64,000 nucleotides of DNA from the NCBI GenBank assembly GCA_963713615.1, contig CAVQMM010000001.1:2464001-2528000 (forward strand), written 5' to 3'. The stretch comes from an uncultured Chlamydiae bacterium. Its GTDB lineage: Bacteria; Chlamydiota; Chlamydiia; Chlamydiales; JAJFMA01. The notes below the pieces were generated by a model, which saw only the letters and a program-made list of their open reading frames with translations, ran no database searches and had not been told where the DNA came from. Within the stretch, counting starts at the first letter, position 1. The number at the start of each line of letters is the position of its first letter. The translations under genes were made by a program, and so were the position numbers. Below are positions 36,640 through 45,302 of this stretch, piece after piece.

Positions 36640-36668
36640 TTGCAAAAAAAGTGCCGCATGGTTACAAT
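36640..36668 (+). promoter_or_regulatory. sigma70/sigma66-type promoter of the his operon
   Basis: TTGCAA-17 bp-TACAAT, 40 nt upstream of the leader ORF. Confidence 0.7.
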
Positions 36669-36708
36669 GTGGATTGATCAGACAAATAGTCTGGCTTGGA
36701 GGCCCTAA

Positions 36709-36798
36709 ATGCAATCATGCAAAATCAACAGTCTTGGTTCCTTCGTTCGCACGACCCTCCAGTCTTGCAGTCATCTCCATCATCACCATCATTGCTAA
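36709..36798 (+). CDS. hisL: His operon leader peptide MQSCKINSLGSFVRTTLQSCSHLHHHHHC
   Basis: GGAGG SD at 36698-36702; 29 codons with 6 His (5 consecutive) just before TAA; sits between the promoter and the operon. Confidence 0.85.
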   Translation: MQSCKINSLGSFVRTTLQSCSHLHHHHHC

Positions 36799-36945
36799 TT
36801 TTTTTTGAGAAGTAAGCCGTTTGGCTTAACTTGTCACATGGCCGTCAAGTACAAATTTTGCTGACTAGTTAGGCCTATGGGACATCACTTCTCGACCCAT
36901 TTTTGCGTAACTACGTATTCAACTTTTTATTATCAAGGAATTGCC

Positions 36946-38385
36946 ATGAAAAAGGCATTGCTTTCCACATCTAACAAGAACGGTCTTGCTGATTTAGCAG
37001 GAGGACTACTAAAACTGGGTTACGAGCTCCTAGCCACACGCGGAACCGCGCAATTTCTACAAGAACAAGGTTTCACAACAACCGAAGTTGCAGAATATAC
37101 AGACTACCCAGAATTACTTGGCGGCAAGGTAAAGACTCTACATCCCAAGATCTTTGGCGGTCTCCTCGCTACGCCAGAACAATATACAGAAATGCAATCC
37201 TATGGCATTTCCCCCATTGACGTCGTTGTCGTTAACCTTTACCCCGACGAGATCGATATCGGCGGTGTGGCGTTGCTACGTGCAGCAGCCAAAAATTACC
37301 GCTATGTCCTCTCCTTGTGCGAGGAAGCCGATTACCAACCGGCTTTAAACTTCTTAGCAACTCAACAGCCGGATGTGCCATTCCGAAAAAGGCTTGCCGC
37401 CAAAGCCTTTGCCTACACTGCACGTTATGATGCTAAGCTAGCTCAAAGCTTAAGTGATGAGGAATTCCCCCAGACTTTTGTGCAGGCATTCTCTAAGGCT
37501 GGTGATCTTCGCTACGGCGAAAACCCTGACCAACGCGCTGCCTTCTATATACGCGAAGGGGGTTCCCGCCCCCTTTTGCTTAAGGGTGAGGAACTCTCCT
37601 ACAATAACCTGCTCGATAGCGACGCTGCCATACGCCTCGTCAGTGGCTTCAACGAACCTACTTGCGCAGTCATCAAGCACACAAATCCCTGTGGAACGTC
37701 GTCAGCGCCTTCTTTACGCACTGCTTTCCAACAGGCCTACGATGCTGATTCCTTGTCAGCCTACGGTGGGATCATAGCCTTTAACAAACCTGTTGATGCA
37801 CAAACTGCTGCAGAACTTAAGGATAAATTCGTCGAGGTTCTGATTGCCCCAGACTACGAAGAGGGGGTCTTGGCTATGCTTCAAAACAAAAAGAAGCTGA
37901 GAATCCTCAAAGCATCTTTAGACGCCAACCCCTACACTTTCAGCGCTGTCACCAATGGTATGCTTTACCAAAGTGCATCCACCGCGGACTTCGCCACACT
38001 ATCCGTGACCTGTCCAACAGACGTTAAACCAACATCGGAACAACTTGCGGATCTGATCTTTGCCGCCAAGGTAAACCGATGCGTAAAGAGTAATGGTATT
38101 GTCTTAGCTAAAAACCAAACGACTGTTGGCATTGGAGCAGGACAGATGAGCCGTCTCGATGCCACTACACTAGCTATCCTAAAGGCTCAGGATAGGGCTC
38201 AAGGGGCGGTACTTTCCAGCGATGGCTTCTTTCCCTTCAGTGATTCCATCGAACAGGCTGCTAAAGCCGGTGTGGTGGCAATCATTCAACCGGGAGGCTC
38301 CATCCGCGATGACGATGTCATTAAGGCCTGCAACACCTATGAAATCGCCATGGTCATGACGGGCATAAGAACCTTTAAGCATTGA
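36946..38385 (+). CDS. purH: Bifunctional AICAR transformylase/IMP cyclohydrolase
   Basis: GKVKTLHPKI, IDIGG..LRAAAKN, LRYGENP.Q, KHTNPCG, SDGFFPF, IIQPGGSIRD; start at MKKALL after AAGGA. Confidence 0.95.
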   Translation: MKKALLSTSNKNGLADLAGGLLKLGYELLATRGTAQFLQEQGFTTTEVAEYTDYPELLGGKVKTLHPKIFGGLLATPEQYTEMQSYGISPIDVVVVNLYPDEIDIGGVALLRAAAKNYRYVLSLCEEADYQPALNFLATQQPDVPFRKRLAAKAFAYTARYDAKLAQSLSDEEFPQTFVQAFSKAGDLRYGENPDQRAAFYIREGGSRPLLLKGEELSYNNLLDSDAAIRLVSGFNEPTCAVIKHTNPCGTSSAPSLRTAFQQAYDADSLSAYGGIIAFNKPVDAQTAAELKDKFVEVLIAPDYEEGVLAMLQNKKKLRILKASLDANPYTFSAVTNGMLYQSASTADFATLSVTCPTDVKPTSEQLADLIFAAKVNRCVKSNGIVLAKNQTTVGIGAGQMSRLDATTLAILKAQDRAQGAVLSSDGFFPFSDSIEQAAKAGVVAIIQPGGSIRDDDVIKACNTYEIAMVMTGIRTFKH

Positions 38386-43266: not shown

Positions 43267-43838
43267 AAACTGTAATCATAGACTGCGGCGGAGGAAATCT
43301 CCGCTCTGTAAAAAATGCCCTATACTACCTAGGAATCGCCAGCGAGATCACTGGTGACAGGAACAAGATTGAAAATGCCGACCGCGTGATCTTTCCCGGC
43401 CAGGGCAACTTTGGTACGGTCATGCAGCAGCTGGATCAGGCTAACCTGAAAGAGACCTTGCGCTTTTGCGCCCTAAATAGGCCATTTTTGGGAATATGCG
43501 TAGGCATGCAGCTGCTTCTAGAAGCGAGTGAAGAAGCTCCAGGTATTCCTGGTCTAGGCATTTTCTCCGGCAAGGTAAAGAAGTTCCCTAGTACATTCAA
43601 AACCCCACAAATGGGATGGAATAAAGTAGAGTTTGCCCAATCATCAGCCTACTTCTACTTTGCTAATTCCTACTATTGCAACGTCGAAGACTCCTCAGTG
43701 GTATGCGCGACAACGCACTATGGAGTAAATTTTCCCAGTGCATTAAGGCGAGGACAGCTACTTGCCGCGCAGTTTCACCCTGAAAAATCTGGAGAAGCTG
43801 GTTTGCGGTTTCTGGAAAGCTTTGTGAGGAACACATGA
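43263..43838 (+). CDS. hisH: IGP synthase glutamine amidotransferase subunit
   Basis: GNLRSV, PGQG, GICVGMQLL, QFHPEKS. Confidence 0.95.
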   Translation: MKTVIIDCGGGNLRSVKNALYYLGIASEITGDRNKIENADRVIFPGQGNFGTVMQQLDQANLKETLRFCALNRPFLGICVGMQLLLEASEEAPGIPGLGIFSGKVKKFPSTFKTPQMGWNKVEFAQSSAYFYFANSYYCNVEDSSVVCATTHYGVNFPSALRRGQLLAAQFHPEKSGEAGLRFLESFVRNT

Positions 43839-44587
43839 TAACAAAACGCATCATCCCCTGCCTAGACGTGGATAAGGGCAGGGTCGTCAAAGGCAAGCAA
43901 TTCATAGAAATCCAGGATGCCGGCGATCCCGTCCAGCTGGCTAAGCTATATGCCAATCAAGGCGCCGATGAAGTCGTCATCTTGGACATCACAGCATCCC
44001 TGGAAGCGCGTGGCACATTCCTACATACTGTTGAGGCAGTATGCAAAAAACTGTTCGTCCCCCTCACAGTTGGTGGTGGTGTGCGAACCGTAGCTGATAT
44101 GCGCAAGCTACTCATGGCTGGAGCAGACAAGATCGCTATTAACAGCGCCGCGATTGCAGACCCAAAAATCATCAGTGAAGCGGCTGACATGTTCGGCTCA
44201 CAATGCATCGTTATTGCTATGGATGTGAAAAGAACCTCCTCGGGCTGGACAGTCTACTCCCATGGTGGCACACGCCCCACAGACCTTGACGCACTAGAAT
44301 GGGCTCTGCGCACTCAGGAACTCGGTGCGGGTGAAATTCTCCTCACCTCAATCGACCGCGATGGCACCAGAAGTGGTTATGACATTGAGCTCTTGCAGTG
44401 TGCAGTGAGTAGACTAAAAATCCCCGTCATCGCCTCTGGAGGCGTGGGGAAATGGGAAGACATCCGCGATGCCTTTCTACTTGGCAATGCTGACGCGGCC
44501 CTCATGGCCTCTATTGTACACTTTGGAGAGATGACTATCCCTCAAATAAAAACACTATTAAAAGACTCTGGAGTATCGGTAAGGTGA
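43835..44587 (+). CDS. hisF: IGP synthase cyclase subunit
   Basis: RIIPCLDV, PLTVGGG, GEILLTSIDRDG, IASGG. Confidence 0.97.
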   Translation: MITKRIIPCLDVDKGRVVKGKQFIEIQDAGDPVQLAKLYANQGADEVVILDITASLEARGTFLHTVEAVCKKLFVPLTVGGGVRTVADMRKLLMAGADKIAINSAAIADPKIISEAADMFGSQCIVIAMDVKRTSSGWTVYSHGGTRPTDLDALEWALRTQELGAGEILLTSIDRDGTRSGYDIELLQCAVSRLKIPVIASGGVGKWEDIRDAFLLGNADAALMASIVHFGEMTIPQIKTLLKDSGVSVR

Positions 44588-44591
44588 TATC

Positions 44592-45302
44592 ATGATCTAT
44601 CCTAGTATTGACCTCATGAATGGAAAGGCTGTGCAGCTTGTCCAGGGAAAAAAGGAAAATAAGAAGCTTGAAATCGATGATGTCTTCGGCCTCGCAGATA
44701 AATTTTCGCAGCTTGGCCACATCAACGTGATCGATCTCGATGCAGCTTTTGGCAATGGTGACAACAGACAATTAATCCAAAGGTTAGCAGCCAAATACCC
44801 CATACGTGTTGGGGGAGGCATTCGCTCGGTTGACATTGCTAAAGCATATATCGAGGCGGGTACTGAGAAGATTATCATCGGCAGTGCTGCTTTTCAGAAG
44901 AATCGTGTCAATAGCGAATTTTTGAGTGCATTACGTGATCGTATTAAGCGTGAGCAGATTATTATTGCTCTAGACTCCTATCAGAAGGCCGTGGTCACAA
45001 AGGGCTGGACGGAGACGACAACACTGGATGCCGCGGAGATTATCAAGAGTCTCGAAGAGTATTGTGGAGAGTACCTGTACACACAAGTAGACAAAGAAGG
45101 AATGATGCAAGGCACGAACGTGGAACGCATCGTCGCATTGAAGGCTCTAACGAGTAATCAGCTTACCGCAGCTGGTGGCATTTCCACAGTAGAAGAGATC
45201 CAGGAACTATGGTCTCATGGCATCTACAGCGTACTTGGTATGGCCCTGTATACCGAGAAGCTCCCTTTTGAAACGTTGATGAAAATAAAGCATTCCAAGT
45301 AA
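44592..45302 (+). CDS. hisA: ProFAR isomerase
   Basis: PSIDLMNGKAVQL.QG, IDLDAA, VGGGIRS, T.VD.EG...G, AAGGI. Confidence 0.92.
   Translation: MIYPSIDLMNGKAVQLVQGKKENKKLEIDDVFGLADKFSQLGHINVIDLDAAFGNGDNRQLIQRLAAKYPIRVGGGIRSVDIAKAYIEAGTEKIIIGSAAFQKNRVNSEFLSALRDRIKREQIIIALDSYQKAVVTKGWTETTTLDAAEIIKSLEEYCGEYLYTQVDKEGMMQGTNVERIVALKALTSNQLTAAGGISTVEEIQELWSHGIYSVLGMALYTEKLPFETLMKIKHSK

Follow-up and report, generated by a model that had tools for sequence, protein, structure and literature searches.

A histidine biosynthesis operon has been identified in a stretch of 64,000 nucleotides of chlamydial DNA (the window, meaning that stretch at its full length), where nine intact open reading frames (ORFs) at positions 36946-45302 follow the order purH-hisI-hisG-hisE-hisD-hisC/HAD/hisB-hisH-hisF-hisA behind a short leader ORF that ends in a run of histidine codons. 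As judged from sequence comparison, the operon was likely regained and passed between chlamydial families, its leader would sense histidine, and the exit of the attenuator would probably be Rho rather than a terminator hairpin; this reading as a whole is given a probability of about 0.55. The enzymes and the attenuation by a leader peptide are of already known kinds. What is of importance is that histidine synthesis, a trait reconstructed as lost in the available text of PMC9816063, appears to have been regained by obligate intracellular bacteria and to be passing laterally among them. A literature search found no description of a his operon or His leader in chlamydiae; the supplementary gene tables of PMC9816063 may list these genes. 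In the following, G000 is the genome of the window, other G numbers are the compared genomes of the phylum and f numbers are families.

The leader ORF is located at 36709-36798 on the plus strand, encodes 29 amino acids (aa) and reads MQSCKINSLGSFVRTTLQSCSHLHHHHHC. It is led by a Shine-Dalgarno (SD) sequence, GGAGG, and is closed by TAA, and its end HLHHHHHC places six His in the last eight codons. Genome-wide, it was found to be the sole ORF among 1264 SD-bearing short ORFs before long ORFs to have at least four His in the last 10 codons. Such a leader is present in all eight operon carriers with upstream DNA, with 29-46 aa and 4-8 His followed by Ser or Cys and then TAA, at a distance of 90-147 nt from the first gene. 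In seven of these carriers the first gene is purH; in G481 purH is absent and hisI comes first, and the poly-His leader is kept despite this. A frameshift or readthrough from the leader into the first gene was rejected, as 1-5 stops lie in the first-gene frame between the His run and the ATG in all eight. The poly-His leader is very likely to serve as a ribosome-based histidine sensor, or attenuator. The earlier note on this DNA had proposed a leader ORF, a promoter and a separate regulation for the block; the leader is clearly present and lends support to the separate regulation. In case of the promoter, the candidate sigma70-type match (TTGCAA-17-TACAAT, 36640-36668, plus strand) is by itself not beyond chance (9 sites against 12.4 in shuffles), but a TA(T/C)AAT box at the matching -10 distance, 37-46 nt upstream of the leader ATG, was found in all seven loci tested.

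Immediately before the His run, a pyrimidine-rich tract (36736-36771, plus strand; 24 of 36 nt pyrimidine) forms a candidate Rho loading site. When operon windows are ranked by pyrimidine content, the 36 nt that precede the first His codon fall within the top 0-1.7% in all eight carriers (top 1.7% in G000); the seven other tracts contain 27-32 pyrimidines in 36 nt, and for the C-minus-G skew seven of the eight are within the top 6%. The leader is followed by a spacer of 147 nt (36799-36945, plus strand) with a U-tract and a hairpin at about 36806-36836. A terminator scan of this spacer found no hairpin with a U-run, and a GC-rich intrinsic terminator with U-run and competing antiterminator was not found as a conserved feature across the eight carriers. 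Moreover, an Rfam search on six loci gave no His_leader even at E up to 1, the five matches being at chance level. Rho is encoded in G000, and the odds that it is the exit of the His attenuator are put at even. With ample His-tRNA, the ribosome would complete the leader and leave at UAA, exposing the C/U-rich leader RNA, on which Rho would load and end transcription in the spacer or early in purH. With scarce His-tRNA, the ribosome would stall on the His run and block Rho, so that the operon would be read; the C-poor spacer may offer little other foothold for Rho during stalling. Chlamydial Rho is described as acting on transcripts uncoupled from ribosomes in the available part of PMC7755916.

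The same layout was found in front of trp genes. The trp leader of G000 (C1:1016773-1016898; L196:4774-4899) ends in SWWRLTA at 96 nt before trpD-C-F-B-A, and has a C-rich, G-free tract ahead of WW, then TAA and a weakly folded spacer. Among 30 trpD loci examined, eight appear, from the length of the upstream frame, to be trpD-first with upstream DNA, and a WW leader is present in six of these eight; two further WW matches at trpD loci were set aside since they lie inside upstream genes. The six trp leaders, which come from four families and include that of G000, share with the his leaders the sensor codons (here WW) near the end, the pyrimidine tract (22-30 of 36 nt), the TAA and an AU-rich spacer. 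A different arrangement is seen in G119, where an Ile/Val-rich leader (L089:13590-13755) stands back to back with the his leader and carries a strong GC hairpin and T9 before ilvC, ilvB and thrC-like genes, which makes an island of amino-acid synthesis with a classical attenuator in a chlamydia. This ilv hairpin is a true terminator (z -7.6), and its recovery indicates that the method detects terminators where they are present. Near C1:3726545 (plus strand) of G000, a secreted-looking ORF is preceded by a short frame that has a pyrimidine tract and six Leu codons; this may be due to chance. The shared layout of his and trp leaders bears on cis-attenuation in chlamydiae, which is called unvalidated for C. 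trachomatis in the available part of PMC7755916, and on the annotated trpL, of which PMC3937554, as far as its available text goes, prints a C. felis leader of the WW kind and remarks that no attenuator structure had been reported. As the his and trp leaders lie in short cloneable 5' regions, the question is testable in an E. coli reporter.

Several observations speak against Rho as the exit. The tract of G000 is the weakest: its C-minus-G skew reaches no higher than the top 15%, and a strict genome scan (at least 27 pyrimidines, at most 4 G), which picked the trp leader and one other site, missed it. Several leader tracts are U-rich rather than C-rich, and the leaders are not independent evidence because seven of the eight are homologous. 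In minimum free energy folds the tract pairs with the leader's own start site, which could mask a Rho site; this pairing was discarded, being beyond both nulls in just one of the eight. For the mycobacterial Cys leaders Rho has been proposed (PMC1262725), but the tested case is translational (10.1101/834739), in so far as the accessible portions of these two sources describe it. Weak AU-rich hairpins with 5-7 U among the next 8 nt are also present in five of the eight carriers (G271, G119, G393, G408 and G481), and these bring in another reading, in which the leader senses His but, as in classical attenuation, transcription would end at a weak AU-rich intrinsic terminator within the spacer. 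This reading would gain from a hairpin at 8-10 nt past the stop, which is kept in the seven homologous leaders (92% of cells paired, mostly wobble changes), and from the presence of the classical ilv attenuator in G119. The seven leaders also keep a 5' hairpin with compensatory changes. It is nevertheless considered unlikely. With ribosome footprints of the usual size, a ribosome at the stop overlaps the conserved hairpin and a ribosome stalled on His leaves it whole, which is the wrong logic for a terminator, and from this geometry the post-stop hairpin is not the regulated terminator. Further, no conserved downstream hairpin shares the 3' arm of the post-stop hairpin, and the empty terminator scan of the window spacer also argues against it.

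Less likely still is a translational attenuation, in which the His codons would pair with the ribosome-binding site of the first gene unless held by a stalled ribosome, as in the mycobacterial polycysteine leaders. The His tail does pair with the purH start in G408 (-14.4 kcal/mol, perfect 10 bp), G393 and G451, beyond shuffles in each (2, 19 and 20 of 1000, respectively), and masking of the His run lowers the opening energy in G393, G286, G408 and G451. When 500 real SD-bearing start regions of G000 are taken as the control, G408 alone stands out (12/500); the control regions pair as well or better in 455 of 500 cases for the window, 500 of 500 for G119 and 429 of 500 for G481, and the opening energy in the window is unchanged by stalling (6.5-6.6). 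The SD occlusion of the tested mycobacterial case, as given in the available text of 10.1101/834739, fits just one to three of the eight leaders here. SD occlusion was accordingly rejected, with three of eight leaders beyond shuffles and one of eight (G408) beyond real start regions. Rho, weak intrinsic termination and SD occlusion could, on the other hand, act together.

In enterobacteria, the his operon stands behind hisL, a short leader in which several His codons follow one another. The chlamydial operon is similar in having its his genes in one operon after such a leader; it differs in that its leader of 29-46 aa has the His run right at the end, in having no terminator/antiterminator set, and also in its gene order, with purH in front and hisI and hisE separate. 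In E. coli tnaC, the ribosome stalls at the leader's own stop when the amino acid is abundant, and the attenuation is Rho-dependent. The proposed shielding of RNA from Rho by a stalled ribosome is common to both, whereas here it is uncharged tRNA-His that would make the ribosome stall, and the leader itself contains the candidate Rho site. The actinobacterial Cys-run leaders share, in the available parts of PMC1262725 and 10.1101/834739, sensor codons beside the stop, no conserved terminator, polypyrimidine stretches and a proposed role of Rho; the present leaders have His and not Cys, and are SD-led and not leaderless. The putative trpL of Chlamydia felis and C. trachomatis, as presented in the accessible text of PMC3937554 and PMC7755916, is likewise a short pyrimidine-rich ORF whose end is near tandem sensor codons, with no attenuator structure reported; it belongs to trp and not to his, and in those portions no mechanism and no his operon are given, the word 'histidine' being absent from PMC3937554.

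All nine ORFs of the operon are on the plus strand, and eight have family matches above the NCBIfam cut-offs. These are purH of a his-linked clade (AICAR transformylase/IMP cyclohydrolase; 36946-38385, PRK00881), hisI (phosphoribosyl-AMP cyclohydrolase; 38396-38695, PRK00051), the long form of hisG with its C-terminal regulatory domain (38692-39537, TIGR00070 and TIGR03455), hisE (phosphoribosyl-ATP diphosphatase; 39537-39809, TIGR03188), hisD (histidinol dehydrogenase; 39806-41047, TIGR00069), a HisC-HAD-HisB triple fusion of 741 aa (41041-43266, TIGR01141 hisC and PRK00951 hisB), hisH (glutaminase subunit; 43263-43838, TIGR01855) and hisF (cyclase; 43835-44587, TIGR00735). The exception is hisA (isomerase of a divergent type; 44592-45302), which scores 196 bits against the TIGR00007 cut-off of 229. 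Six of the eight gene junctions overlap (four ATGA, one TGATG and one of 7 nt), and the remaining two are gaps of 10 and 4 nt; the gene order and the tight coupling described in the earlier note were thus confirmed. The catalytic motifs of the operon proteins are conserved in alignment. The statement of the earlier note that all steps from phosphoribosyl pyrophosphate (PRPP) to histidine are encoded holds for the his genes, since HisG, E, I, A, F, H, B, C and D are all encoded and intact; purH, on the other hand, is no his step, and the phosphatase is assigned from the HAD domain. Purifying selection is indicated by a dN/dS of about 0.09-0.15 for hisG, hisD and hisF in the comparison of G286 with G481 (against the window, dS is saturated), and in one contig of run X3 six of the seven strain differences listed are synonymous. 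These features agree with a functional cassette, and the block is very probably a working histidine biosynthesis operon.

The triple fusion joins the aminotransferase and the imidazoleglycerol-phosphate dehydratase through a HAD_2 domain (residues 347-524, Pfam), to which the histidinol-phosphate phosphatase step is assigned by inference. The region of the pyridoxal phosphate lysine and the HAD motifs (DxD, T, K and D-x-x-DD) are invariant across 10 aligned relatives, and no characterised phosphatase is among the PDB matches. The same fusion is present in protein rows P0004-P0009, and the other chlamydial carriers keep HisB separate from HisC-HAD. Phosphatase domains joined to a neighbouring enzyme of the his pathway are also known from the DPANN HisC-HAD proteins, to which the fusion has 40-43% identity among the named ones, and from the bifunctional HisB (HisNB) of enterobacteria; unlike these, the present chain carries three enzymes and a phosphatase domain of the HAD_2 type. 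A scan of genome contigs with the fusion protein gave 80 loci, none chlamydial by title, and a scan of metagenomes with HisG gave 13 loci, none close (28-34% identity). Since the histidinol-phosphatase step is unassigned in 20% of prototrophs according to the available part of the GapMind 2026 report (PMC13759103), the fused HAD domain may be a candidate for this often missing assignment.

The position of purH at the head of the operon can be understood from purine metabolism. PurF, PurD and PurC were not found in the 99%-complete G000 genome; Prs, PurA, PurB and FolD are encoded and, together with PurH, cover the supply of PRPP and the disposal of 5-aminoimidazole-4-carboxamide ribonucleotide (AICAR). 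AICAR is released in the HisFH reaction. From this release and the missing de novo genes, PurH is likely a salvage enzyme that would recycle AICAR to inosine monophosphate (IMP), which PurA and PurB would return to AMP, and this PurH-PurA-PurB salvage would stand in for the missing de novo route. A link of purH to histidine synthesis, with recycling of AICAR in the absence of upstream purine genes, is known in Buchnera; the difference here is that purH stands at the head of the his operon and accompanies it in seven of the eight carriers with upstream DNA. The his-linked PurH proteins form their own clade (7 rows, support 100), and G271 has a second copy next to purC and purD. The PurH of G253 was rejected as a his-operon gene because its locus is a purM-purL cluster. 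Purine synthesis has been reconstructed as lost; even so, de novo purine genes are seen in some chlamydiae (G271:C1:183070-187247; L158 of G253), and 27 of 401 genomes gave PurH matches.

The operon is rare among chlamydiae, as the earlier note had held. HisD is absent from all 40 relatives compared, including three of the same genus, and strong matches were found in 4 of 400 other genomes of the phylum; one further match, weak (27%, G068) and unrelated, has no further his genes within 16 kb. Family-wide searches with HisG gave 3/129 genomes in f8, 4/103 in f5, 1/73 in f32 and 0/39 in f38, and with G000 the total is nine carriers in four families, of which the loci of G408 and G455 are partial. 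The gene order, sought in other chlamydial genomes, is shared by six other carriers with long contigs, hisB being separate there where it is intact. The His proteins do not follow host taxonomy: G119 and G271 of the same genus have 93% identity in FusA and 65% in His proteins, G119 and G286 of different families have 80% and 79%, and the His proteins of G286 and G481 have 85% (FusA identities of G481, G393 and G451 were not used, as the matches contain stops or breaks). In approximately unbiased tests, monophyly of f8 (p 5.6e-7) and of f5 plus f8 without f32 (p 3.4e-10) was rejected; on the other side, the f5 clade was not rejected (p 0.057). The concatenated trees leave out G451, with its frameshifted his genes, and the partial G408 and G455. 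A transfer of the operon among chlamydial families is highly probable from this conflict.

The horizontal acquisition proposed in the earlier note is therefore supported as a lateral movement, at least among chlamydiae, and not as a recent one-off, since the his genes fall within the G000 range in GC, GC3 and codon usage, and eight other chlamydiae carry the operon. An origin outside the phylum Chlamydiota is probable. Histidine and purH genes are inferred to have been lost before the chlamydial ancestor in the available text of PMC9816063. In the HisG tree, the chlamydial rows fall within one 43-row clade (SH-aLRT 98), followed by three rows and then by a Nanoarchaeota protein (53%). The tree of HisC shows the triple fusions branching off first, with the HisC-HAD forms from the other carriers nested and a DPANN-labelled HisC-HAD group as the neighbour at an unresolved fork. 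HisA gives no pointer to archaea, as its relatives have one Chloroflexota label and the Atlas clusters of a HisA-HisIE relative are mostly Spirochaetota. These quick trees of HisG, HisC and HisA, which rest on top-hit samples, named no outside donor. That the operon came from DPANN-like archaea, was fitted with a terminator-less, Rho-gated leader attenuator used by chlamydiae for several amino acids, and spread between families as a self-contained unit with its own gene for AICAR salvage is offered as a tentative scenario only. Among the metagenomic HisA relatives (P0368-P0423; P0041, P0043), many unusual his fusions were seen, namely HisA-HisIE, HisA-HisIE-HisD, HisA-HisIE-HisG, HisA-HisC, and HisC-HAD with HisG.

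The chlamydial nature of the host was supported. The G000 genome has 3.97 Mb and is 99% complete, with the window inside a 3.9-Mb contig; the three organism-labelled entries among the 120 RpsG matches listed are Chlamydiales (88%), Rhabdochlamydiaceae (83%) and Parachlamydiaceae (81%), three ADP/ATP carriers are over the cut-off, and an OmcB-like protein has a Chlam_OMP6 match slightly below it. The block was found to be inserted between gpmA and rluB, which are adjacent in 13 of 17 relatives and separated by 16.2 kb in G000, where the insertion holds a major facilitator superfamily (MFS) gene, repeats, the his operon and a BTB protein. The MFS neighbours in G001-G004 gave no empty site, and gpmA did. 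The palindromic elements described on both sides of the operon are real, but the upstream one consists of two: repeat A (36256-36415), a palindrome resembling a miniature inverted-repeat transposable element (MITE), with GGCC-ended inverted repeats and 116 near-full genome copies, and repeat B (36416-36620), a degenerate palindrome with partial matches at 30 loci and a near-full match to itself only. Downstream is repeat C (45339-45770), a MITE-like palindrome with 35 near-full copies and 261 copies of an internal piece. A and C have different terminal repeats and are separate families. Together, A, B and C occupy 435 loci genome-wide (about 85 kb), and 25-27% of long intergenic gaps hold one; in the window the families occur also near 7935-8246 and 15308-15844, sometimes nested or adjacent. 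Many copies of repeat A are 98-100% identical, so they are likely younger than the operon, to which both A and C are incidental. Hence, the bracket of MITEs does not hold as the sign of a mobile cassette.

It is then highly improbable that the block is a recent composite transposon on flanking MITEs, or an assembly chimera. Repeats do lie on both sides of the operon, in one contig of sequencing run X1 positions 36415 and 45339 are connected through other letters, and among the contigs listed from four sequencing runs none spans either junction. The joint in X1 was rejected as an excision since A is followed by C within 80 nt at three other sites, which accounts for it, and a composite transposon was rejected since the ends carry no matching elements. 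Moreover, the composition of the block is ameliorated, the repeats belong to unrelated families spread genome-wide, the block sits within the 3.9-Mb contig, and the operon is found in eight other genomes in other contexts. Shares in the sequencing runs were small throughout (0.05-0.17); all four of these runs have identical short pieces within his genes, and in X1 and X3 such his pieces and pieces of native flanking genes have similar depth. An inheritance from the ancestor of the Planctomycetota-Verrucomicrobiota-Chlamydiota (PVC) group, with loss in about 98% of lineages and later shuffling between families, is a better but still unlikely explanation. The order in the Verrucomicrobiota metagenome-assembled genome L009 is nearly the same (hisI-G-D-C-HAD-B-H-F), and L009 groups with the chlamydial rows against Bacillota and Pseudomonadota; the sampling of Verrucomicrobiota in this comparison is not broad. 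L009 is, however, a long branch with 33% HisG identity that the HisG tree places well away from the chlamydial clade, the Nanoarchaeota HisG (53%) and other rows are closer, and the loss is placed before the chlamydial ancestor in the accessible text of PMC9816063. Regain of the operon followed by passage between families is therefore preferred.

A few other features were noticed. Four pieces of 151 nt from the RNA run X13 are identical to stretches within purH and hisE/hisD, which is no proof of transcription. In G481 (L157) and G393 (L088), IS200/IS605-like and other transposase-like ORFs, labelled by eye from translations, flank the his operon. The MFS transporter (34529-35782, minus strand) is divergent from the operon, and its orthologues lie in differing neighbourhoods in three same-genus genomes. 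An Atlas search with a 631-aa neighbour protein gave no usable match. Within the gpmA-rluB insertion, an effector-like protein of 1538 aa (45833-50449, minus strand) has a BTB/POZ domain and a leucine-rich-repeat-like segment. A tandem array of five genes of the nucleotide-transporter family is present at C1:2754372-2762539 of G000, which has 12 such matches in the whole genome. Further along the window, an ankyrin-repeat protein (54475-56919) and a Fic-domain protein (60708-61892) are encoded on the minus strand.

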